From positions 2,296 through 66,295 of IMG/VR virus record IMGVR_UViG_3300033070_001537: a stretch of DNA of 64,000 bases. One strand, 5' to 3'. Of this stretch, positions 2,337 through 18,834 are shown piece after piece. The notes under the pieces were generated by a model that had not been told where the DNA came from, did not search any database, and saw nothing but the letters and a program-made list of their open reading frames with translations. The position numbers were made by a program, and so were the translations under genes. How positions within the stretch are numbered: the stretch's first letter is position 1; the number at the start of each line of letters is the position of its first letter. The stretch comes from a virus. Its lineage: Duplodnaviria > Caudoviricetes.

Positions 2337-2774
2337 ATGACCTCCCTTCGTCGTCCCCGTGTCTTTCTGCTGGCACAGCCGTCTGTCTCTCGACGCGGAG
2401 AGCTTCCGGATCTTCGCCCGCTGGGCGAATTCGGCGATGTGACGGTGATCGTGACCGGCGACATGAATCCGATGCGCTACCCCGCCCGCACGGCGACAGC
2501 CATCGAGGATAAGCTGCACGATTTTGACCCCGAGGTCGACTATTTGGTCGCCGCCGGGGGTGCGACGTTGGCCGCGCTGGTCATTGGATTGGTGCTCGGA
2601 CAGATGGGGATCGAGCAATTCCAGTGGCTGAGCTTCCAACGCGGTATCGACGCGGAGGGACGGCGCGTCAACGAGGGCGGATACTACCGCCCCGTCCGTC
2701 TCGACTTCGGACAGATTGAGCTGCTCGAAGACGAAGCAGGTGACCCCAACGAAGAGGACACAGATGAGCAGTAA
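2337..2774 (+). CDS. conserved hypothetical phage protein
   Basis: ATG 2337 after a pyrimidine-rich leader; the ORF-track extension to 2109 runs through the non-coding repeat. Confidence 0.7.
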   Translation: MTSLRRPRVFLLAQPSVSRRGELPDLRPLGEFGDVTVIVTGDMNPMRYPARTATAIEDKLHDFDPEVDYLVAAGGATLAALVIGLVLGQMGIEQFQWLSFQRGIDAEGRRVNEGGYYRPVRLDFGQIELLEDEAGDPNEEDTDEQ

Positions 2775-3396
2775 CAACGACGAGATGGACGGCGGCGTCG
2801 ACCCGGTCTTGGCCGCCATGCTCGCCAACGACGCTGAGGAGATTGCTGCCGCAGCCCCCGTGGTCAGCTTGCAAGCGGTCCAGCAAGCCGCCCGCGCGAT
2901 GCACGAGGCACAGGTTGCCGTCGCTGAGGCCGAAAAGGACCTCAAGACGAAGAAGGAGGCGCTCCGCATCCTTGAGGAGGTGCGGCTGCCTGAACTCATG
3001 GACACGGCCGGTGTGTCGTCCGTCTCCACGCCCGACGGACTCGTGGTAACGATCGAGTCCTTCATGTCCGCGTCCATCACAGAGGCCAAGCGCCCGTTCG
3101 TGGTGCAGTGGCTCAAGGACACGGAGAACGACGAGCTCGTGAAGCCTGAGCTGCACATGGTCTTCAGCAAGGGCGAGCTCGCGGAGGCGCAGCGGATCGC
3201 GGCCGAGATGAGTACCGCGCTGGGCCGACCGGTGGAAGTCTTAGAGGCGGTCAACACGACGTCCTTCAAGGCGCTCATCGCCGAGCTCCGCCGTGAGTCG
3301 CCTGACATGTCGCTTCCGCTGGACGAGCTTGGCGTCTACATCGGCCGCAAGGCGAAGATCAAGACGTCCAAAGCGCCCAAGAACGCCCTCGCGTAG
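2764..3396 (+). CDS. coiled-coil replication-module protein typical of SSB-adjacent phage genes
   Basis: N-terminal coiled coil then LPELMDTAGVSSVSTPDGLVVTI...VQWLKD; position directly before the SSB-like gene. Confidence 0.6.
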   Translation: MSSNNDEMDGGVDPVLAAMLANDAEEIAAAAPVVSLQAVQQAARAMHEAQVAVAEAEKDLKTKKEALRILEEVRLPELMDTAGVSSVSTPDGLVVTIESFMSASITEAKRPFVVQWLKDTENDELVKPELHMVFSKGELAEAQRIAAEMSTALGRPVEVLEAVNTTSFKALIAELRRESPDMSLPLDELGVYIGRKAKIKTSKAPKNALA

Positions 3397-3430
3397 TCTC
3401 CCACTTCCAACACCTTCCAGGATCTGTTCC

Positions 3431-4309
3431 GTGGCTGAATCCAAAGCATCAACCAAAACCGACGTCGCAACGACCACCAAAGCGCCCGCCGCGGTGCTGC
3501 CCGACGGCGTCGACATTGCCGCCCTTGTCGGCGACGCTAGCGAGTTTGGGCAGTCGTTCGAGAAGAGCGATCTCGCGACGCCGTTCCTTCGCGTGCTCCA
3601 GCAACTATCTCCGCAGCTTCAGAAGCAGAAGCCGGAGTATATCGCCGGTGCCGAGCAGGGCGATTTCTTCCTCACGGGCTCGTCCCGTGTGATTCCGGGC
3701 GCAGAGGGCGTGGTGCTCATTCCCGTGCACTATGAAAAGTCGCACACCGAGTGGAAGCCCAAGCGCGGCGGCTTCGTGGCCGATCACGGGCCCGTGTTCG
3801 ACGTCGACCGCGAGGCGTCGTGGGATGAAGAGCGCAACACCTTCGTCCTGCGCAACGGCAACGAACTCGCCGTCGGCATGCTGTACTATGTGTTCGTCGT
3901 GGACGCAGAAACGGGGTCCTATGAGCCCGCTGCGTTCATCTTGAGCGGCTCGCAAATGAAGAAGGGCCGTAAGTGGAACGCGATGATGCGCAGCTTCCAG
4001 CTCAAGGGCCCGAAGGGCTACTTCACGCCGCCGTCGTTTTTCCTGTCGTACCACGTTACCACGGTGCCGGAGCAGAACGACGCCGGCAGCTGGTACGGCG
4101 TCAGCATCAAGTCCGGCAAGTTCACGCACCAGCTGCCCGACGGCCCGGATCTGTACGAGCGGGCGAAGGAGCTCTACCGCAACGTGCAGTCCGGGGTTGT
4201 GAAGGCGGCGGTGGATGCGCTCGACACCACAGAGAAAGCGACCGACGACGGTCCGCTGCCTGACCTGCCCGAGTCGGACGGGTCCTTCGGAGAAGATCGC
4301 GCCTTCTGA
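3431..4309 (+). CDS. putative single-stranded DNA-binding protein
   Basis: DLATPFLRVLQQLSPQ...YIAGAEQGDFF segment typical of this phage SSB family; acidic C-terminal tail ending in Phe (DDGPLPDLPESDGSFGEDRAF); located before the primase. Confidence 0.65.
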   Translation: MAESKASTKTDVATTTKAPAAVLPDGVDIAALVGDASEFGQSFEKSDLATPFLRVLQQLSPQLQKQKPEYIAGAEQGDFFLTGSSRVIPGAEGVVLIPVHYEKSHTEWKPKRGGFVADHGPVFDVDREASWDEERNTFVLRNGNELAVGMLYYVFVVDAETGSYEPAAFILSGSQMKKGRKWNAMMRSFQLKGPKGYFTPPSFFLSYHVTTVPEQNDAGSWYGVSIKSGKFTHQLPDGPDLYERAKELYRNVQSGVVKAAVDALDTTEKATDDGPLPDLPESDGSFGEDRAF

Positions 4310-5871
4310 TGGCGCCGATCGATCCGTCACTGGTCGAACGCTTTCGTGACCGGTTTTCCGGGTACGCGAAGGCGTTCGGCCAGTCCGTAGTCCGCGACCA
4401 GAACGACACCGGCAAGATGCAGGCACGGTCTTGGACGGTGTCGGGCGCGCCCAGCGCCGCCACTTACCAGAAGCACCTGGAAGGCGACGGCGCTGGGCTC
4501 GGCGTGGTGATGCTCTGCGAAGACGAGACCCTTCGCTTTGGAGCTATCGACTATGACGACCGCTCTCTCCACCACATCAACGCCGCCAAGGAGATTGCGG
4601 CCCGGAACCTCCCGCTGGTTCTGTGCCGCTCCAAGTCCGGAGGCGGACATTTCTATTGCTTTACCAAGGAGCCTGTGTCCGCGGCCTTGATGAAGCAACG
4701 GCTCACCGAATGGTGTGCCCTGCTCGGGTTCGCGGTAACGACCGAGATATTTCCAAAGCAGACCACGCGGTACAACGAGGCCGACATCGGCTCGTGGATC
4801 AATCTGCCGTACTACCATGCAGACGAGACGACGCGGTATGCCTTCGACGACGACGGCAATCAGCTGTCGCTGGAAGAATTCCTCGACGTCGCGGATGCTC
4901 GGGCGCTGACGGCAGAGCAGCTCAAGGCGTATGAAGTCGGGGCGGCGAGTGCGTTGTTCGCTGACGGCCCGCCGTGCCTCCAGATGCTGGAAGCGCGGGG
5001 AGGCTTTGCAGAAGGTTCGAAGAAGAACGGCATGTTTGACGTCGGCGTCTATCTGCTCAAAGCCCGACCCGACACGTGGGAACACGACATGACGCGATAC
5101 AATGACGTCATGGCGCAGATCAAACCCGACGAACTGGTGCAGATCACCAAGTCGCTGCGGAAGAAGAGCGAGGCACAGGACGGCAAGGGCTACTCGTACC
5201 AATGCAAACAACCGCCCATCAACGCCTTCTGTAATCGCTCCGTCTGCCTCACGCGCACTCACGGCATCGGGCGGACGGCGGAGTCGCAGGTCACGATCGA
5301 GAACCTCACGCGGTACCAGTCCAAGTTCGGCGATGACAGCTTCTGGATCGTGCAGATCGCCGGGCAGAGGATCCTGTTGACCACGGCCGACATGTACCAC
5401 GTCGACCGTTTCAATATCGCGTGCATGTCTCAGGCCAACGTCATTCCGATCCTCTCGGTGACGCCGCAGAAGTGGAAGGCATATCTCAACGAGCTCATCT
5501 CGCGGGCGGATGTCATTCAGCTGCCCGACGACGCCACGCCCACGGGGCAGGTGTGGGAGCAGATTGAGGCGTTCTGCACGCAACAGGTCAACGGGCTGAG
5601 CCGAGAAGACGTATGGCAGGGGAAAACCTGGTTCGAAGGCGGGCGGACCTATTTCCGGTCCAAAGATCTGTTCGCCTATCTGGAAGCGAAGCGGGTGAAG
5701 TTCAAGTCCGAAACGTGGGTGTGGAACCTGTTGTCCGAGCACGGAGGCCAGAAGTCCTTTTGGAACATCAACAAGCGCGGGGTCAATGTGTGGAGCATCC
5801 CCGCGTTCGCTGGACGAGAGGAGCAGAGCGGAGAACAGCCCGAAGCGGGAGCGGTACATGAGGAGTTCTAG
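4309..5871 (+). CDS. archaeo-eukaryotic primase (PrimPol-like) DNA primase
   Basis: AIDYD (DxD), RSKSGGGHFY (SxH), EIFPKQ, GSWINLPY motifs; helical C-terminal domain with C/H ligands. Confidence 0.8.
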   Translation: MAPIDPSLVERFRDRFSGYAKAFGQSVVRDQNDTGKMQARSWTVSGAPSAATYQKHLEGDGAGLGVVMLCEDETLRFGAIDYDDRSLHHINAAKEIAARNLPLVLCRSKSGGGHFYCFTKEPVSAALMKQRLTEWCALLGFAVTTEIFPKQTTRYNEADIGSWINLPYYHADETTRYAFDDDGNQLSLEEFLDVADARALTAEQLKAYEVGAASALFADGPPCLQMLEARGGFAEGSKKNGMFDVGVYLLKARPDTWEHDMTRYNDVMAQIKPDELVQITKSLRKKSEAQDGKGYSYQCKQPPINAFCNRSVCLTRTHGIGRTAESQVTIENLTRYQSKFGDDSFWIVQIAGQRILLTTADMYHVDRFNIACMSQANVIPILSVTPQKWKAYLNELISRADVIQLPDDATPTGQVWEQIEAFCTQQVNGLSREDVWQGKTWFEGGRTYFRSKDLFAYLEAKRVKFKSETWVWNLLSEHGGQKSFWNINKRGVNVWSIPAFAGREEQSGEQPEAGAVHEEF

Positions 5872-5875
5872 GTAG

Positions 5876-7372
5876 ATGGCCCAGTCGGTGGAGATATTGT
5901 TCGGCCCGCCCGGAACGGGCAAGACAACGGAGTTACTCAACCGGCTGGGCGACCTGGTGGAGCAGAAGCGCATCTCGCCAGAGCGCATTGCCTACCTGTC
6001 GTTCTCCCGAGCCGCCGTGGGCGAGGCGATGAGCCGCGTGTCGTATCCGCGAGACGCCTTGCCGTGGTTCCGCACAATTCACTCGCTGGGGTTCAAGCTG
6101 TGCGAGCTGTCGCGCCTGGATGTCCTGCAGGTGGAGCACCTGAAGGAATTCGGCACGATTATCAGTGAGCCGTTCAAAGAGGTCGACGCGCACACGGGCG
6201 CGTGGGACACGCCGCCGTCATCTCCGGGGCGAGGCTACCCTGCGGATCTGGCGCTGGAGATCTGGGCGCAGGCGCGTGCCCGCGGCACTGGGCTGGAAGA
6301 CGAATGGCGACGGGCGCAATACCGCGACCTGACGTTCGGATTTGTCGACAAGCTCATCGACGCCTACGAGGCGTTCAAGTATGCCAACGGGCTCTGGGAT
6401 TACCCGGATATGGTCCGACGCGCGGAGGGCGAGCTGCCCGTGGACTGGGTCTTCTTGGACGAGGCACAGGATACGTCAGCGGCCCAGTGGAGCCTCGTGC
6501 GCCGTGTCACGCCCAAGGGCGCGCGCGTGGTCATTGCCGGCGACGACGATCAAGCGATCTACGGATGGAGCGGCAGCGACCCGCGCCCGTTGCTGACGCT
6601 CAAGGCCGACCGCACCGTGCTGCCGCACAGTTACCGACTGCCGTCACGCATCAAGCATCTGGCGGACGCGGTGGTGCGACCGATCCACGGCCGCCACCCG
6701 AAGATCTTTACGTCCAACGGAGAGACGGGAGACGTGAAGACGGTGACGGACATCGACGCCGTCGACCTGCGGAGCGGTGAGTGGTTGCTGTTGGCCCGTA
6801 CCAACTACCAACTCGCTCAGTGGCGACGGCTCGCCAAACAGCAAGGCGTCGTCTACACCTTGGAACACGGTGACTGGTCGTGGAAGCTGCCCGCGGTGCG
6901 CGCGGCCGGCGCCTACGACGCTCTCCGGCGCGGCAAGGGCGTGGAGCGCGGCGAAGTGAAGTACCTCTACCAGGCCTTGCCGCCCGAGCTCCGTGCCACG
7001 GCAGACGTGAAATCGCTGCCCGAAACCTGCGTATGGGATCACGTGATGGGCCCATCCGCAGACCGACACGCCAAGGCGTGGTGGGAGGTGCTGACGCTCA
7101 TGGACCCCGAAGACACGGCGTACATTCGCGGTCTGAGGCGGAACGGCGAGAGCTTGACGCTGCCCGGCCGCGTGCGGATCCTCACGGTCCATCGCTCCAA
7201 AGGGCTCGAAGCTGATCACGTCGCGGTGCTGTCGGACGTGCCCAAACGGGTCTGGGAGAACGCCGACCGCGGCGACGAGCTTCGGGTGCAGTATGTCGCC
7301 AGCACACGGGCACGGAAGACGCTGACGCTCGTGCGCCCGACAACGCCGAACCACTGGGAGTGGACGATTTGA
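5876..7372 (+). CDS. UvrD/Rep-like SF1 helicase
   Basis: GPPGTGKT, LDEAQD, AGDDDQAIY, SYRLP, TVHRSKGLEAD, YVASTRARKTL. Confidence 0.9.
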   Translation: MAQSVEILFGPPGTGKTTELLNRLGDLVEQKRISPERIAYLSFSRAAVGEAMSRVSYPRDALPWFRTIHSLGFKLCELSRLDVLQVEHLKEFGTIISEPFKEVDAHTGAWDTPPSSPGRGYPADLALEIWAQARARGTGLEDEWRRAQYRDLTFGFVDKLIDAYEAFKYANGLWDYPDMVRRAEGELPVDWVFLDEAQDTSAAQWSLVRRVTPKGARVVIAGDDDQAIYGWSGSDPRPLLTLKADRTVLPHSYRLPSRIKHLADAVVRPIHGRHPKIFTSNGETGDVKTVTDIDAVDLRSGEWLLLARTNYQLAQWRRLAKQQGVVYTLEHGDWSWKLPAVRAAGAYDALRRGKGVERGEVKYLYQALPPELRATADVKSLPETCVWDHVMGPSADRHAKAWWEVLTLMDPEDTAYIRGLRRNGESLTLPGRVRILTVHRSKGLEADHVAVLSDVPKRVWENADRGDELRVQYVASTRARKTLTLVRPTTPNHWEWTI

Positions 7373-7375
7373 TCC

Positions 7376-7404
7376 TTGACGAATCTTTTCGCAGTCGATA
7401 GATT
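7376..7404 (+). promoter_or_regulatory. sigma70-like promoter
   Basis: TTGACG-N17-TAGATT immediately after the helicase stop. Confidence 0.75.
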
Positions 7405-7449
7405 CGTCAGTTCAACGACGTGCTTTTCCATCTCAACGAGGGCCCCGTT

Positions 7450-8442
7450 ATGACATCCCCCAAGCGATACAACATCTGGCACCGCAACGCGACCAATCCG
7501 TTGGACGGTGTCCCGTCTGTCCAGACCGCGCTCCGCATCAGCGGGCTGGACTGGGAGACGCAGGTGCGCCCAATCGCCGTCGTGCAGACGACGCCCTCGG
7601 GCGAGTCCGCGTATGCGGAAATCCCGAAGCATTTCGCCACCATCCGCTCTGACACGCAGGAAGTCCTCGGGCTGGTGCGCAGCCGCTACACCCCCGTCCA
7701 CAACCGGACGGCGTTCCAGATCATGGATCCGCTGGTGCAGGAAGGCTTGGCTGAGTACGTCAGCGCCGGCATGTTCCGCGGCGGTCAGGACGTCTACGTG
7801 TCGATCCGCTTCATCATCAACGACCCGCGCGTGGAAGACATCTTCGGGTTCTCGTCCCGCGGAGACCTGGTGCGCAGCATGGGGGTCTTCACCAACAACA
7901 ACATCGGCGTTCGGAAGGCGACGTTGTCGATGACGCCGATCCGCATTGCCTGTGAAAACAGCTTTCACCTCATCACGGTGCGCGCCGGGAGTGAAGACTC
8001 TGGTGTGAAGATCATGCACGGCGCGCGGGCGAATTCGCAGCTCGTCGAAGCGGCCCGCACGCTGTGGAAGGACATCGTGGAGTCGCACGTCCGCGTCGCG
8101 GCCCAGTTTCGGGCGCTGAAGGGCGCGATGCTCGACGAAGAGCTCTTCGCCTCGCTGGTGCTGGACGTGGTGGCGCCGTTGCCGCAGAACCCTGCGTCGC
8201 GGCAGTACGAGAGCCGACTCGCGCAGATGGAGCGCCGTCGCGCGAAGCTCACGGATCTGTTCTACAAAGGGAAGGGACAGGACGGCAATCCCACGGCGTG
8301 GGCCGCGTACAACGCCGTCACCGAGTATCTCGATCACTACCACGTGGTCAGCATCGACCGTATTCGCAGCGAGGTTGAGGGCGGGACCGGGCTGATGAAG
8401 CGCGACGTCTACCGCAACCTGATGCACGAGGTGGTGGTGTGA
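7450..8442 (+). CDS. DUF932 family phage/plasmid-like protein
   Basis: SGLDWETQVRP, HFATIRSDTQEVLGLVRSRYTPVHN, TPIRIACEN, TAWAAYNAVTEYLDH. Confidence 0.85.
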   Translation: MTSPKRYNIWHRNATNPLDGVPSVQTALRISGLDWETQVRPIAVVQTTPSGESAYAEIPKHFATIRSDTQEVLGLVRSRYTPVHNRTAFQIMDPLVQEGLAEYVSAGMFRGGQDVYVSIRFIINDPRVEDIFGFSSRGDLVRSMGVFTNNNIGVRKATLSMTPIRIACENSFHLITVRAGSEDSGVKIMHGARANSQLVEAARTLWKDIVESHVRVAAQFRALKGAMLDEELFASLVLDVVAPLPQNPASRQYESRLAQMERRRAKLTDLFYKGKGQDGNPTAWAAYNAVTEYLDHYHVVSIDRIRSEVEGGTGLMKRDVYRNLMHEVVV

Positions 8443-9602
8443 TGCCGGCCAACCTCTCCAACGCCATGAAAGCGGAGCTCGAGATGGAAGGCGCGAGGGC
8501 GCTCGACATCCTCCGTCGAAAAGACGAAGCGAACGCCGCCATCGCCCGCTTTCGGAAAGTAGTGGACGACTTCAACATGGGCGAGCGCAATCCCGACCGT
8601 TTCACGCAGACGATCGTCGACATGATCACGAAGATCGGCGAGTCGATGTATCGGCGGACGGCGGTCAATCTCGGCCAGGAATGGGTCACCCAGGCGACGT
8701 CCAAAGACGCGCCCGAAAGCCCGAGCATCTTGGGCGGTGACTGGGATCATCTTCCTGTTCGCGCCCCCGACGAACTCCGAGCCTACCTCCGCCGTGAGAT
8801 GCCGGTCAACACCGTGATCGGAGATCCGGATGCGGTAGGCATGAGTAGTGTCTCGCGTTCTGTGTGCCCAGAGTGTGGTATAGCGGACACAGAGCAGCCC
8901 GCCCCCGTCAGCGCGACGGAGCCAGAAGATTTCGAGACGTTGGCGGGAGCGTTCTTCAACGACACGCGCGTGATGGCTCCTGGTAAAGACGTTGCCGCTG
9001 CGATGGGTGGCGACTACGACGCTTACGATCTCCGCGTGAAGCTGTATCGCGAGTGGTGCAAGGCGCGCACCCTCCGCGCCCGCGTGGCGGAGTTGGAAAA
9101 AGACGTGCTGGTTCAGCACGACATGCTGAAAGACTTGGGCGAGTCCCGTCAGGTCGCACTGGATCGCGTGGCGGAGTTGGAGCGCGTGACGGAGGAACAG
9201 GTGGAGCGGGCTGCACCACATGTGTACGACGCGATGCGCTCATTCGACGCTGAAGGTGCGCGTCATCCGTGGGTGGCTGGCGGCAACTCCGATATGCAAG
9301 ACAAGGCACGTCGTGTACTTCGTGCCGCCCTCACCGCTGCACGCGGGGGCGGGTCAGAGCACGCGCCGGATCAGCCGACCTGGCAGGGCGAGTCTACCGA
9401 GCCCGAAGAGTCTGGGTGGTACGCCGTACGCCGTGCCGACGGGTCGCTGTGCATCCGTGCGTGGGGCAACGACCTGTGGTGGATCCCGCTGAAGGACGGG
9501 TGGCTGAGCGGACTGCCGAGCGGATTCTCGTGGTTCGGCCCGCTGGAGTCGATCGACTGGGACACGCCAGGCGTCGAGCGGCTTGAAGGAGGGGCGCGGT
9601 GA
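8439..9602 (+). CDS. hypothetical protein (mosaic, coiled-coil segments)
   Basis: Long + strand ORF coupled to both neighbours; no recognisable family. Confidence 0.65.
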   Translation: MMPANLSNAMKAELEMEGARALDILRRKDEANAAIARFRKVVDDFNMGERNPDRFTQTIVDMITKIGESMYRRTAVNLGQEWVTQATSKDAPESPSILGGDWDHLPVRAPDELRAYLRREMPVNTVIGDPDAVGMSSVSRSVCPECGIADTEQPAPVSATEPEDFETLAGAFFNDTRVMAPGKDVAAAMGGDYDAYDLRVKLYREWCKARTLRARVAELEKDVLVQHDMLKDLGESRQVALDRVAELERVTEEQVERAAPHVYDAMRSFDAEGARHPWVAGGNSDMQDKARRVLRAALTAARGGGSEHAPDQPTWQGESTEPEESGWYAVRRADGSLCIRAWGNDLWWIPLKDGWLSGLPSGFSWFGPLESIDWDTPGVERLEGGAR

Positions 9603-9967
9603 CCCTTTACCTCTTTGACGACCAGACGTCCGAGTGTCGCGCCTACACCCGCAACGAGGCGACGGGGCTTATCAACGTCTGGTACGAGGACACGTTGCCT
9701 GAGCATTTCTACGAACATGCGGAGCCTGGTGTCTTCTTGGTGTTTGACGGTATTGTCCATCGCGACACGCAGGATGCGACGGACGAAGAGCTGGAGGCGC
9801 GAGGGCTGCCGACGTCCGCCCGCCATCACAGCGAGTGGTGGGTCGGGTCGATGAAGCCGGCGTCCGACGCCGAGCTCCTCGCGTTGTTCAGCCACAACCC
9901 GGTCGTCCGGTCTCAAATGGAGGGACTCGAACACCCGCCCAAGGAGGGTCCGCGTGATGACGCCTGA
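9599..9967 (+). CDS. hypothetical protein
   Basis: GTGA coupling, GGAGG upstream. Confidence 0.65.
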   Translation: MTLYLFDDQTSECRAYTRNEATGLINVWYEDTLPEHFYEHAEPGVFLVFDGIVHRDTQDATDEELEARGLPTSARHHSEWWVGSMKPASDAELLALFSHNPVVRSQMEGLEHPPKEGPRDDA

Positions 9968-10490
9968 GATACTTCTTCGCTCAGGGCTGTATTTCAATTT
10001 CGAGAACCCTGACCCGTCTACCGTCACCCTTCAAGACGTCGCCTGGGCGCTGGCATACACCTGCCGTTTCGCCGGGCATACGCGCGTCTTTTACAGCGTA
10101 GCGCAGCACAGCGTCCTGGTCTCGCACATCGTTCCCCCGGAATTTGCCTTGGCGGGTCTTCTGCACGACGCGCCTGAGGCGTATGTCGGAGACGTCACGG
10201 CGCCTCTCAAACAGCTTCTTCCCGATTACCGCCTTGTCGAGAAGCGGGTCGAGTCGGCAGTCTTCCGCCGCTTTGGCGTCTCGCTTCCGATGCCGGCAGA
10301 GGTCAAGACGGCTGACTTGGTGGCGCTGGCGACGGAGCAACGGGATCTCATGGCTCCGCACGACGACGAATGGGCAAGGCTGGCCGGTATCGCTCCGTTG
10401 CCGGACCCGATTGTTCCGATGTCGTCTGCTGAAGCGGCCCGGGCGTTCATATCGCGGTTTCTCCAACTCTCCTCTCTTCCGAATCCGTAG
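9954..10490 (+). CDS. HD-domain phosphohydrolase (YfbR/YfdR-like nucleotidase)
   Basis: CRFAGHT..FYSVAQHS..LLHDAPEAYVGDV..PLK...VKTADLVALATE. Confidence 0.85.
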   Translation: MMTPEILLRSGLYFNFENPDPSTVTLQDVAWALAYTCRFAGHTRVFYSVAQHSVLVSHIVPPEFALAGLLHDAPEAYVGDVTAPLKQLLPDYRLVEKRVESAVFRRFGVSLPMPAEVKTADLVALATEQRDLMAPHDDEWARLAGIAPLPDPIVPMSSAEAARAFISRFLQLSSLPNP

Positions 10491-10805: not shown

Positions 10806-11161
10806 TGCCGACTGTCTTGCTCCTGTCTGTCACGCCGCCTGACACCTCGTCCGTCCTTGCGCTGACGTCCGCGGTCAAAGCGCATCAGCTGCTCAAGCAT
10901 ATCAATACAGCGTCGACGCGCGATACCGCGACGAGCCGCGCGCTCGTGAGCGAGATGAGCGATATTCTGAAGCATGCAGACCTCATTCGCGCGTGGGCAC
11001 GATGCGAGCGGCTGACCGTATTTGAGACAGCTGACTTGTCGGACCCTGACATCCAACGGCGGATCTGTCGCGAGTTGCTGGAGTCGGCGGTCTTCGCGAC
11101 GCCTCGACGCGACCCGCCGCCTCCCGAAACTTCGGCTTGCGTGATTGCCGAGCCCGTGTAA
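10805..11161 (+). CDS. hypothetical protein
   Basis: TGATG coupling with upstream gene. Confidence 0.55.
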   Translation: MPTVLLLSVTPPDTSSVLALTSAVKAHQLLKHINTASTRDTATSRALVSEMSDILKHADLIRAWARCERLTVFETADLSDPDIQRRICRELLESAVFATPRRDPPPPETSACVIAEPV

Positions 11162-11165
11162 TACT
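11137..11165 (+). promoter_or_regulatory. sigma70-like promoter of the 7-deazaguanine operon
   Basis: TTGCGT-N17-AATACT followed by two CAACGA motifs, as at other promoters in the window. Confidence 0.5.
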
Positions 11166-11207
11166 GTGCGCTCCCCAACGACGTCCTCGCTCATCAACGA
11201 CTCTGCT

Positions 11208-11951
11208 ATGTCTCCCCAACCCAAGCCCCCTCGGACCGCCGCTGTGCGGCCGTCCCCTGAGCTCCTGTCCGCGTTCGAGTCTCTCAACCGGACGGTCCCT
11301 TCTATCACGAGACTGATGAGTACCTCTCGGGTATTGCCTCCTGACGCCTCGCCGCCCGGGCGTATCATGCAGCCCACGCGGGCGGACGCCTGCACCGCCG
11401 TCGAGACCTTGCTGCGGTACCTGGGCGAGGATCCGGAGCGGGAAGGCCTCCGTGAGACGCCGTCACGCTTCGTCGCTGCCATGGAGGCCTACACGGCGGG
11501 CATGGCGCTGACGCCGGACAAGATTCTCAAGACGTTTGCCGACGGGGCGGAGGGCACGAATGAGCTCGTTATCGTGCACAACATCCCCTTCCTGTCCATT
11601 TGCGAGCATCACCTCGCGCCCGTGACAGGCATCGCCCACGTCGGCTACATCCCCTCGGGCAAGATTGTCGGACTGTCGAAGCTCGCTCGACTGACGAACA
11701 TCTTCGCCCGCCGTCTGCAGGTGCAAGAGCGAGCGACGCAGCAGATCGCGGACGCCTTGGTCGAGCACCTGCAGCCGGTCGGCGTCGGCGTCCTTGTGCG
11801 CGCGGCGCACGGGTGCATGTCGCACCGTGGTGTCATGATCCACGGGTCCGTCACTACCACCTCAGCCATGCGTGGCGCCTTGCTCGAAGAGCCGGCGGCG
11901 CGGGCTGAATTTCTCGCGCTTTGTCGCGATGGAGAACGCTCGCATGGCTGA
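11208..11951 (+). CDS. folE: GTP cyclohydrolase I
   Basis: GEDPEREGLRETPSRF, FLSICEHHL, GLSKLARL, RRLQVQER, AAHGCMSHRGV; start at 11208 or 11367. Confidence 0.95.
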   Translation: MSPQPKPPRTAAVRPSPELLSAFESLNRTVPSITRLMSTSRVLPPDASPPGRIMQPTRADACTAVETLLRYLGEDPEREGLRETPSRFVAAMEAYTAGMALTPDKILKTFADGAEGTNELVIVHNIPFLSICEHHLAPVTGIAHVGYIPSGKIVGLSKLARLTNIFARRLQVQERATQQIADALVEHLQPVGVGVLVRAAHGCMSHRGVMIHGSVTTTSAMRGALLEEPAARAEFLALCRDGERSHG

Positions 11952-12270
11952 AGGAACCGACGCGCCGGAGACGCAGGTGCACATTCCGGCCGCAGTGACA
12001 CCGAAGATCATGGTGGAGTTCGAAGGAGAGCCGGACGGCGATCCCGTGCTGATCGAGCTCGCCGACGTGTCGATGGTGCTGTCTCGCCCGCCCTCGCCCA
12101 ACGGCATGGGCACGGGCTTGGTCTTGCGGGGCGGCGGCATGATCATCGTCCGCCCGTCTTATCGCGACATCCTGCGGATCCTGGACGCCCACAAGGTGCA
12201 GATCTTCCGCGCCATCACGATCCGCGCGTCGATGGACGGCATCATCGATCCGCCGAGGATCGTGCAGTGA
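11944..12270 (+). CDS. hypothetical protein inside the 7-deazaguanine operon
   Basis: Overlaps folE stop and queD start; no recognisable motif. Confidence 0.65.
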   Translation: MAEGTDAPETQVHIPAAVTPKIMVEFEGEPDGDPVLIELADVSMVLSRPPSPNGMGTGLVLRGGGMIIVRPSYRDILRILDAHKVQIFRAITIRASMDGIIDPPRIVQ

Positions 12271-12791
12271 GCACCGTCATCACGCGCAAGATGGAGATCG
12301 ACATGGGCCACCGCGTGCCACGGCATGCGGGCAAGTGTGCGAATCTCCACGGTCATCGGTACGTCATCGAAGTGGAAGTGAGCGGTGTCGTGCACGGCGG
12401 CGGCACGTCCGAAGAGGGCATGGTGATGGATTTTGGCAAGATGAAGTCCATCATGCACGACGTCATCGACGGGTGTTTCGACCACACCATGTGCCTCGGC
12501 GTCGACGATCCGTTCTTGGACGGTGTCTCGTCTGCGCACATTCGTCAAATCACACCGACGATTCCGTCGTTGCAGGCCGTTGGCGGCCGTCGGTTTCACT
12601 TCCACAACATCGGGACCGTCGTCGTGCTGCCCGAGGTGCCGACGGCGGAAAACCTCGCGTCGGTGTGGTACCGCATGCTCCGCCCGACACTGAGCGACAT
12701 CAACATCGACCTCAAAGCGGTCACCGTGTACGAGACCCCGAATTGCTGGGCGACGTACCGCGACCTGAACCAGCCGGAGACCGAGGCATGA
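12267..12791 (+). CDS. queD: 6-carboxytetrahydropterin synthase
   Basis: MGHRV..H.GKCANLHGHRY, FDHT, PTAENLA, VTVYETPN. Confidence 0.93.
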   Translation: MSTVITRKMEIDMGHRVPRHAGKCANLHGHRYVIEVEVSGVVHGGGTSEEGMVMDFGKMKSIMHDVIDGCFDHTMCLGVDDPFLDGVSSAHIRQITPTIPSLQAVGGRRFHFHNIGTVVVLPEVPTAENLASVWYRMLRPTLSDINIDLKAVTVYETPNCWATYRDLNQPETEA

Positions 12792-13615
12792 GTACCGACA
12801 TCGTCATCCGCCCGATCCTGCGCAGCGAGGTTGAAGCCGTGCAATCGGTGTTCAACCACAAGGACGTCATCGCGGGGTTGGGCGGCTTTACCATGACCGA
12901 CACGGTCAAGAACGCCGCCTTCGGCAATCGCCCTGGGCTGCTCGCGGCATGGGACGGTACGACACCGGTCGGTGCGATTATGGTCGGTGGCCGCCCGCAG
13001 GTACATCTCCTGAAGTACGGCAGCGTGGGCGTCCTGCCCGAGTACCGCCGCCGTCGCATCAGCACGGCGCTCTATTTCGGCCTGACGTTGCAGGGCATCC
13101 TGGAGGGCCGTCGCCTGTTCGAGGACACGATTGTCGGCGACAACGCGGCCCAGCAAGTCGCCCTGCCGACGATGGGCTTGTCGTTGGCGGGCACGTTGCG
13201 CCACCGTACCGCGAGCGCCAAGTCCATCCTCCTGTATCAACTGTCGCTGGTCGCGAACGTGCCGTCCGACTACCGGGCCTCGCTGGGGCTGGACGTGGTG
13301 GCGCCGTTCATTTGCATGTACGATCGGGTGGTGACGTCGAAGTATCGATTCCACTATTTCTTGGACGACAACGCCATCACGCGCGATTGGTACGTCAAGA
13401 ACAAGGAGATCGTCGACAAACATCCCGCCGAGCTCAAGGCGGCTTGGGAAGACGCCGAAGACACGCGGTCCGCGATGCGGGCGGACACGGTGTCAGGCAT
13501 GAGCGTCACCGTCGTCAAGGATCGCGAGATCGCCGCGGCCCCGCAGCGGGGCCAAAAGAAGCCGGCAGCCCAAGAGCTGTCGTTCTTCGACGCGCCCACT
13601 GAGGAAGCCCTGTGA
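12788..13615 (+). CDS. GNAT-family N-acetyltransferase-like protein with C-terminal extension
   Basis: [10 protein letters not shown] (beta1), [31 protein letters not shown] (acetyl-CoA-binding motif A, with Arg where Gly is usual), DNAAQ (motif B Asn); coupled to queD and queC. Confidence 0.7.
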
Positions 13616-14478
13616 CACATCCGTTTCGTATCCCGCCGCTTCGGAGCTCCTCGCCTGCCCTCGTGGTATTGAGCGGCGGGCAGGACTCGACCTTTTGCGC
13701 CGCGCTCGCCAGTTTGAAGCACGAGAAGGTCTATGCCGTCACGTTCAACTACAATCAGCGGCACGACCGCGAGATTGAGGCAGCACGGAACGTCGCAGAC
13801 TTGCTTGACCTTGACGGGCACGAGGTCGTGACGCTCGGACCCATTCTGGAGAGCACGTCGCCGCTCACCGACATGCGTCAGACGCTCGAGCAGTATGACA
13901 ACGCGAAGGAGATGAGCGAGATCATCGGCGACCGCGTCGAGCTGACGTTTGTGCCGATGCGGAACACCTTGTTTCTCACCATCGCTGCCAACCGCGCCGT
14001 GGCGCGGAGGGCTGGCCAGATCTACACCGGTGTCTGCCAGGAAGACGGCACCAATTATCCGGACTGCACGGACGACTTTATCGCCCGCATGGAGGGGTTG
14101 ATCGATGAGTCGCTTGGCAATCAGGCGGACTACATCCAGGTCGACGCTCCGTTGCTGCACTTCACCAAGGCGCAGATGATCCTCGAAGCGGCGCGTCTGG
14201 AGCTCGAGCACGGCATCCGGATCATGCGCGCGTGGGCGTACAGCCACACGGCGTACGACGGCGCCTATCCACCCACTGGCAAGGACCACGCCACGGTGCT
14301 GCGAGCTGCGGGGTTCGAAGCGGCAGGCTGGCCCGACCCGCTCGTCCTGCGGGCGCATCTGGCAGGTCTGTGGCCCGAGCTGCCGGAGACATCAAACTAC
14401 GCCGGTATCGAGCCGAAACTCTCGGTCTGGGGAGCCTACCTTGCGGGCCGTGTTCCCTTGACGCGGGTGCTCGGATGA
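13612..14478 (+). CDS. queC: 7-cyano-7-deazaguanine synthase
   Basis: [46 protein letters not shown]. Confidence 0.95.
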
Positions 14479-15188
14479 TGGACGCCCGGCGGGACAGCGT
14501 GAACCGCATCGTCACAGTCTACCTGGCGTTGTTTGCCGTGGTGCCGTTCCGATACTCGCCCACGGCGTGGCGGGGCGAGACAGAAGAGCCCACGACAGTG
14601 ACGCCACAGCCGTGTATCGTGTCGCCGGGCATTCTGCGCGGCTTCACCTGCCCCGCTATGTGCGGCGCCTGTTGCAAGTCGTTCACGATGGACTGGCTGC
14701 CGTACGAGACAATGCCGCACAATCCGCGGCGGATCAAACTGCGGACATTCATGATCAACGGGCGCGACGTCCCCGTGTTCACAGACGCCCAGGCAGGCAA
14801 CGACACGGGATACTGCCGGTACCTCCGGCACGAAGACGGGCGGTGCGGCATTCACGGCACGCACCCGATGCCGTGCGACTTCGAGCTGATTCGTCCGTTG
14901 ATGAGTCACATCGAGGCACGCCCGAACCGCGTGACCACGAAGCTCTTCGGACGCGGTCACCAGCTGATGCGTGTCGTCGACCAGACGCGCGGCGCCTTGT
15001 GCACCGTGAACGGCATCACAGACGACACTATCGACGACACCATCCGTCGGCTCAACCGCTTGCAGGCGTGGGCAGACCATTGCCGCGTCATCACCCACAT
15101 TCCCACCGTCGTTGCATGGGCAAAGGACCCGGCTCGCCGTACTGAGCCGCTGCACCTCGCCCCGGACCCTCTTCCCCCACTCTCATGA
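14475..15188 (+). CDS. Cys-cluster (YkgJ-like, CxxxCxxCC) putative Fe-S/Zn protein
   Basis: CPAMCGACC ... [20 protein letters not shown]; coupled between queC and queF. Confidence 0.7.
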
Positions 15189-15697
15189 CCGCTCCTGTAC
15201 ATGAAGCCTCCGCCGGACTCACGGCGCTGGGCAGCGACACGACGTATGAGTACGCTATGCCTCGCCCCACGATTCTCGAGACGTTTCTCGTCCCCCAACT
15301 CGCCGTAGGCTCGGGCATGACGTCTCTGGTGCTGATCTCCGCGCCCGAATTCACGTCGCTGTGCCCCAAGACAGGACAGCCGGACTTCGCGAACATCATC
15401 ATCGAGTACCTGCCGCGGGAATACTGCGTCGAGTCCAAGAGCCTCAAGCTGTACCTCGGTGCCTACCGTCAACACCGCGGATTTCATGAAGAGTGCGTCG
15501 CGCAGATCCTACGTGACCTTCGGGATGTTGTCGATCCGTTGTGGATCGCGGTGCAGGGCCGTTTCACACCTCGCGGCGGCATCCCGTTCTGGCCGCTGTC
15601 GGTATGGTCGTCTCCGTACCTCACGCCCGACTCTCGATATCAGGTGCAGCACATGAGCCGCCTCCTGCGCGGTGACGTGCCTGTGGCGCCGAGGTAA
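15185..15697 (+). CDS. queF: NADPH-dependent preQ0 reductase (type I QueF)
   Basis: EFTSLCPKTGQPDF, QueF motif ESKSLKLY, HE, FTPRGGI. Confidence 0.92.
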   Translation: MTAPVHEASAGLTALGSDTTYEYAMPRPTILETFLVPQLAVGSGMTSLVLISAPEFTSLCPKTGQPDFANIIIEYLPREYCVESKSLKLYLGAYRQHRGFHEECVAQILRDLRDVVDPLWIAVQGRFTPRGGIPFWPLSVWSSPYLTPDSRYQVQHMSRLLRGDVPVAPR

Positions 15698-15703
15698 CGG
15701 TAG

Positions 15704-16648
15704 GTGAACATCTTCTTCTCAGGCATCGGCGGCAAGGACATGGAGCTCGATCCGCGCCTCGCCGGGCGGAAGCGGTACCGGCTCCTGTCCTGCCACGGTG
15801 CTTATCAGCGGTCGGCGTACGACATCAGCCGGGAGTGCCTCTCGGCGGGCGACCCAGTAGAGTTCATGTACGACTCCGGCGCCTTCACGGCGTGGAGCCG
15901 CGGGGAAGAAGTCCACCTGGACGACCTCTTGCGCGTCTACGCCGACCTGATCAAGGAGTTCGGCGCCGCGGCCGACAACATCTGGCTCATCAACCTCGAC
16001 AAGATTCCTGGGTCCAAGGGCCGCACCGCCACGCCTGCGGAGCTCGACGAGGCCATTGAGATCTCCGATAAGAACTACGCCATTCTGGTCAAGGAATTCG
16101 GGCCGCGGGTCCTGCCTGTTTTCCACCAGAACGAAGACGAGCGTCGCCTCCGTCAGGTGTACGACATGGCAGAATTCATCTGCGTGTCGCCACGGAACGA
16201 CTTGCCAGAAGGCGATCGCATGACGTGGTCGCAGGAGACGCACCGCCTCCTGTCCGCCTACGGCACACCGCGGCGGACGCACGGCCTCGCCGCCACGGGC
16301 TGGCGCATGATGCACCGCGTGCCGTGGTGGTCGGTGGACTCGGCGACCTGGGTCATCCTTGGCGCCAACGGCGCGATCTTCACCGACACGCGCCTCAAGA
16401 TCGTGCAGATCAGCGCCTTGAGCGGGGCGCGGAAGGACGCCGACAACCACTTCCGCACCATGGCTCCTGTCGTGCAGGAGACGCTGGCGGCGCAGATTGC
16501 TGCCCGCGGATTTACCGTGGAAGAACTCGAAGAAGACTTCCGCGCCCGCATGCTGTACAACCGTGTCGTCCTCAACGAGTCCGCTGATGTCGCCGCACAG
16601 TCGACTCGTCACAACGAAGTGCACGTCCCCTCCCTCTTCGGACTATGA
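15704..16648 (+). CDS. dpdA: DNA guanine transglycosylase (TGT-like DpdA)
   Basis: DSGAFTAW, NLDKIPG, PVFH, HGLAAT, PWWSVDSATW; sits in the preQ operon. Confidence 0.82.
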   Translation: MNIFFSGIGGKDMELDPRLAGRKRYRLLSCHGAYQRSAYDISRECLSAGDPVEFMYDSGAFTAWSRGEEVHLDDLLRVYADLIKEFGAAADNIWLINLDKIPGSKGRTATPAELDEAIEISDKNYAILVKEFGPRVLPVFHQNEDERRLRQVYDMAEFICVSPRNDLPEGDRMTWSQETHRLLSAYGTPRRTHGLAATGWRMMHRVPWWSVDSATWVILGANGAIFTDTRLKIVQISALSGARKDADNHFRTMAPVVQETLAAQIAARGFTVEELEEDFRARMLYNRVVLNESADVAAQSTRHNEVHVPSLFGL

Positions 16649-17090: not shown

Positions 17091-18118
17091 AGTCCTACCT
17101 CTCCATTCTGCGCCGCGTCCGCGGCGCCGTCAGCACACGGGACCTGGTTCCGGTGCTCACCCACTTTCACTTCTACGGCGGCCGCGTGCAGGGCACGAAC
17201 GGCCACATTACCGTGGACTCGGTGCTGCCTGGCTCGAAACTGGACGGCACCGTGCCGGCGGAGCGGTTCATCAAAGTCCTGGACCGCTGCACGGACGAGA
17301 TCACACTGTCGCAAGACGCGCACCACCTGACAGTGAAGTCCGGGCGCTTCAAGGCCAAGATCGCATTCAGCCAGGACCCGTTTCCGCTCATGCGGAACCT
17401 CGCGGTGGACGGCGGCGTGCCGTTTACGTTCTCGCCTGCCATGTGGCTGGCGGTGCAGACCATTCAGCCCTTCATCGGCACGGACGCCTCGCGCCCGTGG
17501 TCGTGCTCGGCGTTGATCCGCGGCGCCTACGTCTACGCCACGAACAACGTGGTCTTGGTGCGCTCGCTGTGGGCCGGCGTGCCGTCCATGGTGCCGGAAG
17601 GCATGTCGGACGTGATGTTGCCCGAGACGCTGATCGACGAGATGGCGCGGCACCCGGAGCCTATTTCGGGTGCGCTCGTAAGCGAGAATGCGCTCCAAAT
17701 CGATTATCGCGATCCGGGCAGCACTGAGCCGGCGTTCTGGATTCGCGCCGTGAGAAACAACGAGAGCTGGCCCAACGTTGCGCCGATGTTCGCGGTGCTG
17801 GACGGGCTTGAGTTGCCCGAGGTTCCGGACGGGCTGCACACCGCGGTGGAGACGGTGGCGCCGTTCTGCGTCGACGTCAAGCTGCCCGTGGTCCGCTTCG
17901 GGCCCGGCGGCGTGTCCACGATGGAAGGCGACCACATGGCGTCCATCGAAGGCTTCGACCTGCCTGAAGCCGCGTTCCTCGCTCCGCATCTGTTGCCCGC
18001 GCTCGAGCTGGCGACCCACGTCGACTTCTCCCCGTTCCCCGGCCCGTGCCCGTTCTGGCAGCTCTCCGACCTCGGCACGAAGCACATCGAAGGTCTCATC
18101 GTCGGAGTTCGCATATGA
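17087..18118 (+). CDS. DNA polymerase III beta (sliding clamp)-like protein
   Basis: 343 aa; AVSTRDLVPVLTHF..GTNG..TVPAERFIKVL..LTVKSGRFKAKI..FP resembles the DnaN N-terminal domain. Confidence 0.75.
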   Translation: MKSYLSILRRVRGAVSTRDLVPVLTHFHFYGGRVQGTNGHITVDSVLPGSKLDGTVPAERFIKVLDRCTDEITLSQDAHHLTVKSGRFKAKIAFSQDPFPLMRNLAVDGGVPFTFSPAMWLAVQTIQPFIGTDASRPWSCSALIRGAYVYATNNVVLVRSLWAGVPSMVPEGMSDVMLPETLIDEMARHPEPISGALVSENALQIDYRDPGSTEPAFWIRAVRNNESWPNVAPMFAVLDGLELPEVPDGLHTAVETVAPFCVDVKLPVVRFGPGGVSTMEGDHMASIEGFDLPEAAFLAPHLLPALELATHVDFSPFPGPCPFWQLSDLGTKHIEGLIVGVRI

Positions 18119-18834
18119 AAACAACGATACCAGTGAGCGAGATCTTCCTCGCCGTGCAGGGCGAGGGCATGCAGATCGGACGCCCGACCGTATTTGTCCG
18201 AACAGGCGGGTGCGACTTCCGCTGTTCGTGGTGTGATTCGATGTACGCCGTGGACCCGAAGCACAAGGCGGAATGGAAGCCGATGACGCCGACGGAGATC
18301 CTGGACACAATCGACACGATCACGGGCGGCACGCCTATCCTCATCACGTTGAGCGGCGGCAATCCCGCGATCCATAACTTCGCGGACTTCTGCGTCTTGG
18401 CTAAGCGACGCGGCCATACGCTGACGATGGAGACGCAGGGTTCGAAGTTCGCGGTCTGGATGAACCAGCTGGACTTCCTGTGCCTGTCTCCCAAGCCGCC
18501 CAGCAGCGGGATGGAGAACAAGTTCAATCCCGTCGAGTTCGAGAAGTGTCTCAGCACCGGCTTCCCGTCGCTGTCGGTGAAGATCGTCGTGTTCGACGAG
18601 ACGGATCTGGCATGGGCGCTGGACGTTTTCAAGACGTGCCCGTCCGGGTATGCGCGTCTCTACCTGCAGGCCGGCAACAACGACGTCCACACGGCGGATC
18701 AAAACGACGCGGTATTGGGTGCGTTGACAAGTTACGCCTGGTTGGAGCGTCAGGTTCTGAAGCGAAAGCTCTTCCACGTCACCGTGCTGCCTCAGCTGCA
18801 CGTCCTCGTCCACGGCAACAAACGCGGAGTCTGA
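18115..18834 (+). CDS. queE: 7-carboxy-7-deazaguanine synthase (radical SAM)
   Basis: EIFLAVQGEG, FVRTGGCDFRCSWCDS, TLSGGNPA, METQG, SPKPPSS, PQLH. Confidence 0.95.
   Translation: MKTTIPVSEIFLAVQGEGMQIGRPTVFVRTGGCDFRCSWCDSMYAVDPKHKAEWKPMTPTEILDTIDTITGGTPILITLSGGNPAIHNFADFCVLAKRRGHTLTMETQGSKFAVWMNQLDFLCLSPKPPSSGMENKFNPVEFEKCLSTGFPSLSVKIVVFDETDLAWALDVFKTCPSGYARLYLQAGNNDVHTADQNDAVLGALTSYAWLERQVLKRKLFHVTVLPQLHVLVHGNKRGV

Follow-up and report, generated by a model that had tools for sequence, protein, structure and literature searches.

We propose that a gene inside a phage preQ1 cluster encodes a new type of tailoring enzyme for the preQ1 side chain. The window analysed here is a 64,000-nucleotide stretch of phage DNA (positions 2,296 to 66,295 of the 66,295-bp IMG/VR record IMGVR_UViG_3300033070_001537) with a guanine-plus-cytosine content of 63%. 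By gene content, it holds a full Dpd/que cluster: dpdA and the genes for preQ0 synthesis, with an open reading frame (ORF) at 12788–13615 (+ strand) lying inside the cluster. The 275-residue translation of this ORF is predicted to be a GNAT-fold protein. In our favoured reading, to which we give about even chances, it is an acyl-CoA-dependent N-acylase of the aminomethyl nitrogen made by QueF, perhaps acting after that nitrogen has been methylated. Acetyl specifically, as the acyl group, is less likely than N-acylation as a whole. A functional link between the protein family and preQ1 chemistry is well supported by gene context. The acyl donor, the acyl group, the acceptor nitrogen, the choice between base and DNA as substrate, the order relative to DpdM and the product are details that we infer.

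The GNAT gene is embedded in a preQ1 operon

The genes of the pathway in the window are as follows.

11145–11951, + strand: folE, GTP cyclohydrolase I, first step to preQ0 (PF01227, E 6.4e-64)
12267–12791, + strand: queD, 6-carboxytetrahydropterin synthase (PF01242, E 1.2e-33)
12788–13615, + strand: GNAT-fold two-domain protein, 275 residues (translation, AlphaFold2 model, Foldseek and VIA matches, family alignment)
13612–14478, + strand: queC, preQ0 synthase (PF06508, E 4e-46; TIGR00364, 150.6 bits against a cut-off of 150.3)
14475–15188, + strand: DpdM homologue, YkgJ/CxxCxxCC family (PF03692, phrog_16018, tblastn)
15185–15697, + strand: queF, NADPH-dependent reductase of preQ0 to the primary amine preQ1 (PF14489, E 4.7e-29)
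15704–16648, + strand: dpdA, DNA guanine transglycosylase inserting 7-deazaguanine (phrog_887, E 9.7e-44)
18115–18834, + strand: queE, radical S-adenosylmethionine enzyme, 7-carboxy-7-deazaguanine (CDG) synthase (phrog_2076, E 6.7e-40; PF04055, PF13353)

From queD through the GNAT ORF, queC and the dpdM homologue to queF, each gene overlaps the next by 4 nt; dpdA, two small ORFs, a clamp-like gene and queE follow, and folE lies just upstream of this run. The start of queE is probably the ATG at 18115, which overlaps the stop of the clamp gene, although the longest frame runs from 18046. The original prediction had described 4-nt overlaps of the GNAT ORF with both of its neighbours, and these can be read directly in the sequence: the ATG at 12788–12790 and the queD stop (TGA, 12789–12791) share an ATGA, and the ORF stop (TGA, 13613–13615) and the queC start (GTG, 13612–13614) share a GTGA. 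Judged by these overlaps, the GNAT ORF is translationally coupled with queD and queC. The start at ATG 12788 is backed by the N-termini of 25 aligned homologues, and the 17-residue protein string quoted in the original prediction is present at residues 79–95 of the translation. Since the ORF has homologues of up to 60% identity and the family alignment contains 25 invariant columns, sequence conservation marks it as a real gene and not a chance open frame.

The enzyme content that had been claimed for the operon was likewise recovered, with FolE, QueD, QueE and QueC identified by Pfam and phrog_2076, QueF by TIGR03139 and PF14489, and DpdA by phrog_887. The window QueF scores 125.7 bits against the TIGR03139 preQ1 synthase equivalog model (cut-off 86.9), and has both the catalytic Cys (SLCPKTGQPD) and the motif for reduced nicotinamide adenine dinucleotide phosphate (NADPH; ESKSLKLY). 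DpdA homologues in L020, L006 and G002 share an invariant DSGAF motif. Promoter and terminator scans gave nothing exceeding shuffled expectation.

The GNAT family is tied to queF

Loci encoding relatives of the GNAT protein were taken from viral, metagenome and genome collections and annotated by iterative searches seeded with window proteins, together with Pfam and PHROGs. The context described here is that of the fetched loci, which represent a minority of the roughly 96 family clusters. Gene orders were as follows.

Window: folE, orf132, queD, GNAT, queC, dpdM, queF, dpdA
L005: GNAT, queF, YhhQ/Vut_1, queD, queE, folE, queC, dpdM, PolA
L006: dpdA, queE, queD, folE, GNAT, queC, dpdM, queF
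L020: queD, queE, folE, dpdM, GNAT, queC, queF, dpdA, PolA
L002 and L003: GNAT, queF, YhhQ/Vut_1 transporter, small ORF, dpdM, 297-residue ORF, PolA
L017: GNAT, queF, YhhQ/Vut_1, queC, dpdM
L016, L022 and L024: short contigs on which GNAT adjoins queF or queC
L031 (distant subfamily): GNAT, queF, queC, nucleoside deoxyribosyltransferase-like gene, 127-residue CxxCxxCC ORF, queD, queE, folE
L035/L036 (second distant subfamily): GNAT within a deoxycytidine monophosphate (dCMP) deaminase/ThyX module; queF and a YhhQ-like transporter lie 7 kb away
L007 group: GNAT by itself in the locus

Co-occurrence with queF had been set as a test of the original prediction, and queF was found in or near every adequately sampled GNAT locus, across three subfamilies and with the gene order shuffled. 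The GNAT gene lies directly upstream of queF in seven loci (L002, L003, L005, L016, L017, L022 and L031) and between que genes in four (the window, L006, L020 and L024). For the L007 type, the complete 236-kb genome of a jumbo phage with terminal repeats (G002) has dpdA, queF, folE, queC, queE and queD 27 kb from the GNAT gene, and a DpdM homologue elsewhere in the genome. A que gene is missing only from L021 (5.4 kb) and L023 (2.3 kb), contigs too short to be informative. Searches for related loci of P0085, P0104 and alignment A10 (distant subgroup Y2) returned no loci.

The most compact arrangement is that of L002 and L003, in which no preQ0 synthesis genes were found within 20 kb (the L002 locus is 20.5 kb). 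Since this minimal cluster of L002 has GNAT, queF, a transporter and dpdM but none of those synthesis genes, it puts the role of the GNAT protein after preQ0. A DpdM-like gene accompanies GNAT in 8 of the 9 lineages with adequate sampling; none was detected in the L035 type, with the caveat that the Pfam-based genome search overlooked a known case as well.

The ORF is predicted to encode an intact GNAT core

An AlphaFold2 model for which the family alignment served as input (predicted local distance difference test score, pLDDT, 87.8; predicted template modelling score, pTM, 0.85) contains the elements beta1-alpha1-alpha2-beta2-beta3-beta4-alpha3-beta5-alpha4-beta6-beta7, the full GNAT core, and its pLDDT exceeds 90 for the greater part of residues 1–155. 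The GNAT domain extends from residue 1 to about 157–168 (nucleotides 12788 to ~13290). When the model was compared with the PDB by Foldseek, only GNATs were matched, over residues 1–168, with E 2.6e-8 and target template modelling (TM) scores of 0.7–0.8. An exhaustive VIA-align search gave 230 chains at Z of at least 8, led by Ard1 (Z 15.6, root-mean-square deviation (rmsd) 2.7 over 153 residues) and including RimI, NatA, PA4794 and BAR at Z 13–15, many of them solved with coenzyme A (CoA) or acetyl-CoA. Superposition on such CoA- or acetyl-CoA-bound GNATs covers ~150 residues at Z 13–15.6 and rmsd 2.0–2.7. A structure prediction had been proposed as a check on the acyltransferase assignment, and the model thus shows an intact core that superposes on acetyl-CoA-bound enzymes. 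Structural modelling therefore identifies the ORF product as a GNAT-fold protein. By sequence, the closest PDB match is EctA (E 0.004).

Following the core is a family-specific alpha/beta C-terminal domain of ~75 residues (~172–246) and then a disordered tail; most family members carry both domains. The C-terminal domain is modelled confidently in the full-length protein only (pLDDT 63 when folded alone), and folded alone it had no Foldseek match at E<=0.001. Between the core and this domain, the window protein has a 14-residue linker insertion (residues ~158–171, window 13259–13300) of low model confidence, which no aligned homologue shares and which is thus peculiar to this protein.

A word-indexed search yielded 50 relatives of the window protein. 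In a profile search of 1.84 billion representatives there were 120 matches at E<=0.001, among them the 96 clusters that reach E<=1e-10; generic GNATs appeared from near E 1e-5 only. The 25 invariant columns of the family alignment include LGG, EGRR and ED.IV, and among the invariant residues are LGG (31–33), R69, K76, G78, Y96, EGRR (106–109), E112, D113, Q122, LP (126–127) and N205. By these measures the family is small, sharply bounded and under strong constraint. Among 185,579 species genomes, the sole match was a contig of a candidate-phylum metagenome-assembled genome, equal in length to the IMG/VR viral contig L006 and with the match at the same position, and megablast of the operon against cultured phages gave no match. 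Judged by its distribution, the family is phage-only, its carriers being uncultured phages.

The operon also encodes a DpdM homologue

The original prediction did not recognise the ORF at 14475–15188 as a DpdM homologue. This ORF matches PF03692 (27.9 bits against a cut-off of 23) and phrog_16018 (E 6e-25). In a tblastn search it shared 39% identity over 131 residues (E 1e-22) with the ORF immediately adjoining queF in Cellulophaga phage phiSM, and it also matched Vibrio phages VH7D, phi-Grn1 and phi-ST2. The YkgJ/DUF3109/CxxCxxCC family to which it belongs has been named DpdM, the dPreQ1 N-methyltransferase (Cui, Hutinet and colleagues, PMC10516641), and the VH7D homologue expressed with DpdA2 in E. 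coli gives mdPreQ1 (PMC10516641). Sequence similarity thus indicates that the window operon already encodes one enzyme tailoring the preQ1 amine. Among cultured phages, a QueF homologue is present in 82 records and a DpdM homologue in 27 of these, and the GNAT family is present in none. For the original prediction, the consequence is that its link to preQ1 chemistry stands, but that an N-acyl-N-methyl base or a mixture may be the product instead of plain 7-(acetamidomethyl)-7-deazaguanine.

When DpdA2 was combined with DpdM in the published E. coli experiment, dPreQ1 fell from ~2,765–3,666 to 0–97 per million nucleotides, but mdPreQ1 reached only 9–40 per million nucleotides (PMC10516641 Table 2). 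Most of the preQ1-derived signal is unaccounted for, suggesting that DpdM chemistry may be incompletely understood, which has a bearing on any model in which the GNAT protein follows DpdM.

A proposed N-acylation step

In the pathway that we favour, FolE, QueD, QueE and QueC produce preQ0, and QueF reduces it to preQ1, exposing a primary aminomethyl group. The GNAT protein would then transfer an acyl group, in the simplest case acetyl taken from acetyl-CoA, onto the aminomethyl nitrogen, acting either on free preQ1 before its insertion by DpdA or on dPreQ1 or mdPreQ1 in DNA. Virion DNA would then contain an N-acyl-aminomethyl-7-deazaguanine, the acyl-CoA counterpart of the formyl derivative attributed to DpdN. 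This is the simplest reading because QueF makes the only new nucleophile of the pathway and the GNAT gene is tied to queF. There is also precedent, since the same nitrogen is already methylated (by DpdM) and formylated (by the predicted DpdN) in phage DNA.

The evidence on the substrate points in two directions. Small-molecule-like structural neighbours, a C-terminal domain that is not basic and adjacency to queF and queC favour the free base. On the other hand, the GNAT gene travels with DpdM, which is proposed to act on DNA, and this favours a DNA substrate. Given the presence of DpdM, the pathway could end in an N-acetyl-N-methyl base, an N-acetyl base or a mixture. A more specific version, that DpdM and then GNAT act on one nitrogen to give 7-(N-acetyl-N-methyl-aminomethyl)-7-deazaguanine or an N-acyl-N-methyl relative in virion DNA, we consider rather unlikely. 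If true, the N-acetyl-N-methyl base would be a doubly derivatised guanine replacement so far undescribed in nucleic acids, and the nesting of GNAT in clusters with queF and dpdM would reflect a three-enzyme module running from QueF through DpdM to GNAT.

Evidence against N-acylation and alternative explanations

A number of observations weigh against the assignment of this protein as a preQ1 N-acylase. Several concern the protein itself. The window protein matches Pfam Acetyltransf_1 (PF00583) only marginally, at 21.2 bits against a cut-off of 20.7. Motif A, Q/R-x-x-G-x-G/A, is departed from at two positions: aligning the beta4-alpha3 loop RRRRIS on RRQGIA of EctA places Arg at position 4, as the original prediction had cautioned, and also Ser at position 6. 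In the motif alignment, the position of the alpha4 Tyr general acid is occupied by an invariant Leu. The C-terminal domain is not basic (isoelectric point 6.1) and has no assignable fold, so that it lends no support to DNA binding. Others concern the distribution and context of the family. Searches of 50,697 cultured-phage records by tblastn, with this protein and three distant members of its family as queries, gave no match. Several of the lineages are related phages sharing PolA, DUF932 and Sak4-like genes, meaning that the co-occurrence counts are not independent. DpdA of the window type was not found by protein and profile searches in the records of L002, L005, L031 and L035 (29–63% complete; the control, G002, was found), and a DNA end-point is therefore uncertain for the family as a whole; a phrog_887 search over related records carries no weight here, because the control genomes went unmatched too. 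Lastly, DpdM and GNAT may compete for the same nitrogen, or GNAT may act elsewhere.

Some of these objections can be answered in part. The GNAT assignment made in the original prediction survives the marginal Pfam score, because Acetyltransf_1 is matched by 24 of 26 family members (best E 4.6e-7) and the predicted fold fits solved GNATs. Strict motif A is frequent among GNATs but not universal. GNATs bind CoA mainly via backbone amides, so the change from Gly to Arg need not abolish CoA binding.

The same substitutions would be explained if the protein were a non-catalytic pseudo-enzyme or scaffold of GNAT fold, binding QueF, QueC, DpdM or preQ1 with no acyl transfer. The pyrophosphate-loop Gly is Arg in most family members and the Tyr general acid is replaced by Leu, the additional C-terminal domain packs on the core (confidently in the full-length model only), and the gene tightly adjoins queF. 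We nevertheless judge this improbable: an invariant acidic pair on beta5 (E112/D113), the invariant Y96 and a conserved Arg cluster resemble an active site and not decay, the canonical loop is kept by P0006, P0026 and P0031 (RRQGIS, RCRGIA and QRKGIG), and CoA binding could survive the loop substitution. To a similar degree, we doubt that the protein is a protein acetyltransferase like RimI or Rac of phiKMV-like phages, acting on a host or phage protein, with a position in the operon that is incidental or that serves to regulate a pathway enzyme. By fold, its closest structures are indeed the N-terminal acetyltransferases Ard1, NatA/Naa10 and RimI (Z ~15), and there are known phage GNATs whose targets are host proteins (PMC7824862). 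However, Z-scores among GNATs do not tell substrates apart, and incidental placement fails to explain an association with queF that spans three subfamilies, rearranged clusters and a transporter-queF-dpdM module.

An enzyme of the same pathway could also act on the free-base pool, acylating free preQ1 or a related intermediate without any DNA base being made. Such an activity might keep preQ1 from host tRNA-guanine transglycosylase (TGT) and tRNA or from preQ1 riboswitches, might detoxify an excess, or might acylate another position such as N2. This is unlikely in our estimation, if less so than the pseudo-enzyme and protein acetyltransferase explanations. It fits the closest fold and sequence matches (EctA, PA4794, ArsN and BAR), which act on small molecules or protein N-termini, as well as the non-basic C-terminal domain, the position of GNAT beside queF and queC, which encode free-base enzymes, and not specifically beside dpdA, and the occurrence of the family in clusters of a salvage type that include a YhhQ-like base transporter. 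What it leaves unexplained is the near-constant DpdM-like companion, proposed to act on DNA; moreover, the 82 cultured QueF-positive records have no GNAT, and phages with QueF and DpdA manage without it.

Relation to known systems

Of the eight 7-deazaguanine derivatives known from phage DNA, two arise by tailoring of the preQ1 amine, by DpdM (methylation) and by the predicted DpdN (formylation) (PMC10516641). The proposed N-acylase resembles DpdN in its role: both lie beside a phage que/dpdA/queF cluster, both are proposed to N-acylate the preQ1 aminomethyl nitrogen, and in both cases the product would replace G in virion DNA. The proteins themselves are unrelated, as DpdN has a formyltransferase fold (PF00551) and presumably uses a formyl donor, whereas the enzyme described here has a GNAT fold and presumably an acyl-CoA donor, and the group that it adds would be acetyl or larger. 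In DpdN phages, fdPreQ1 has been measured. A Pfam scan of the window GNAT at E<=0.01 gives PF00583 only and no PF00551. DpdM acts on the same nitrogen, and its homologue lies two genes downstream of GNAT in the window operon, but it is a metal-cluster-fold methylation enzyme that is not homologous to GNAT and that occurs without GNAT in cultured phages.

Mom of phage Mu belongs to the GNAT superfamily and modifies the N6 amine of adenine in DNA as an anti-restriction measure (PMC7824862). It is a precedent for a GNAT-type phage enzyme that acylates the exocyclic amine of a DNA base, with a different target base and a different genomic context. Kinship with Mom was rejected, as hhalign comparison of the family alignment A1 with Mu Mom (L034:1378-2103) gave a probability of 0.2%. 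Solved GNATs such as EctA (6sjy), RimI (5isv), Ard1 (4pv6) and PA4794 (3pgp) share the core fold over ~150 residues (Z 14–15.6), and EctA acetylates the primary amine of a small metabolite, diaminobutyrate. Identity to the solved GNATs is 11–18%, and the window family differs in its conserved C-terminal domain, in invariant motifs of its own (LGGF, GGRPQ, a 14-residue motif and RHRT) and, for the window protein, in the Arg and Ser at motif A positions where solved GNATs usually have Gly and Gly or Ala. Full-text literature searches turned up no account of preQ1 carrying an acetyl or other acyl group in nucleic acids, nor of a GNAT in phage deazaguanine clusters, and two key papers on the subject are likewise silent.

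Other features of the window and related loci

Upstream of the operon, a replication module spans window 3293–10490 and includes the following genes.

3293–4309: Pam3 gp34-like protein
4309–5871: AEP-TOTE-type primase domain protein
5876–7372: UvrD-like helicase
7420–8442: DUF932 protein
9954–10490: weak YfbR-like HD 5'-deoxynucleotidase, under the Pfam cut-off

The last of these could bear on nucleotide-pool handling. Within the operon, the 315-nt gap between folE and queD is occupied by an ORF of at most 132 residues (11872–12270), in a frame different from that of queD, which overlaps the end of folE and has a GTGA in common with the queD start. No Pfam or PHROG match and no homologue in related loci were found for it, so its status as a gene is uncertain.

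In four related loci, a transporter of the YhhQ/Vut_1 family (PF02592, E 5e-48 and 2e-36) lies beside or near queF (L002:11033-11749, L005:11070-11753, L017:2263-3000 and L035:19113-19772). Together with the lack of preQ0 synthesis genes in the L002 locus, this gene suggests that some phages import preQ0 or preQ1 instead of making it. A conserved ORF of ~297 residues is found directly upstream of PolA, where L020 has dpdA, in L002 (12813-13703), L005 (15184-16068) and L031 (10109-11113), with the motifs ILDNSAHE, IHLLGWGR and IRSIDSAKP. It had no Pfam, NCBIfam or PDB sequence match, and comparisons with DpdA by BLASTP and hhalign were not significant. The single pointer to DpdA or TGT comes from language-model features in the ESM Atlas, which lead to clusters where 15–17% of members carry PF23859 DpdA or PF01702 TGT, making it a candidate divergent DNA transglycosylase. 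The L031 cluster, in which no DpdA is recognisable, has a nucleoside 2-deoxyribosyltransferase-like gene (L031:3556-4140; PF15891, E 5e-36) in the queC-queD interval, which may mark another route of the base onto deoxyribose. In the 236-kb jumbo phage, queF (G002:C1:122656-123231; L026/L027) is a 413-residue open frame that matches the QueF domain twice and may thus encode a two-domain protein; the window QueF, by contrast, has 170 residues and a single domain.

Implications for phage DNA modification

The case for the window cluster as a candidate source of a further 7-deazaguanine DNA base is well supported, and it extends known tailoring and introduces no new principle. If N-acylation is correct, the known set of 7-deazaguanine bases would grow by one more, and the GNAT protein would be a third class of enzyme tailoring the preQ1 amine. 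The claim is directly testable in the heterologous E. coli system used for DpdM, and an enzyme that N-acylates preQ1 could serve in the enzymatic labelling of DNA or RNA. Even if the protein is not an acylase, the family marks a conserved function tied to phage QueF. If it is, uncultured phages would diversify the preQ1 side chain further than is now recognised. Host glycosylases that recognise 7-deazaguanine DNA have recently been described (bioRxiv 10.1101/2025.10.29.685425), and such diversification plausibly fits pressure from restriction enzymes and from glycosylases of this kind.

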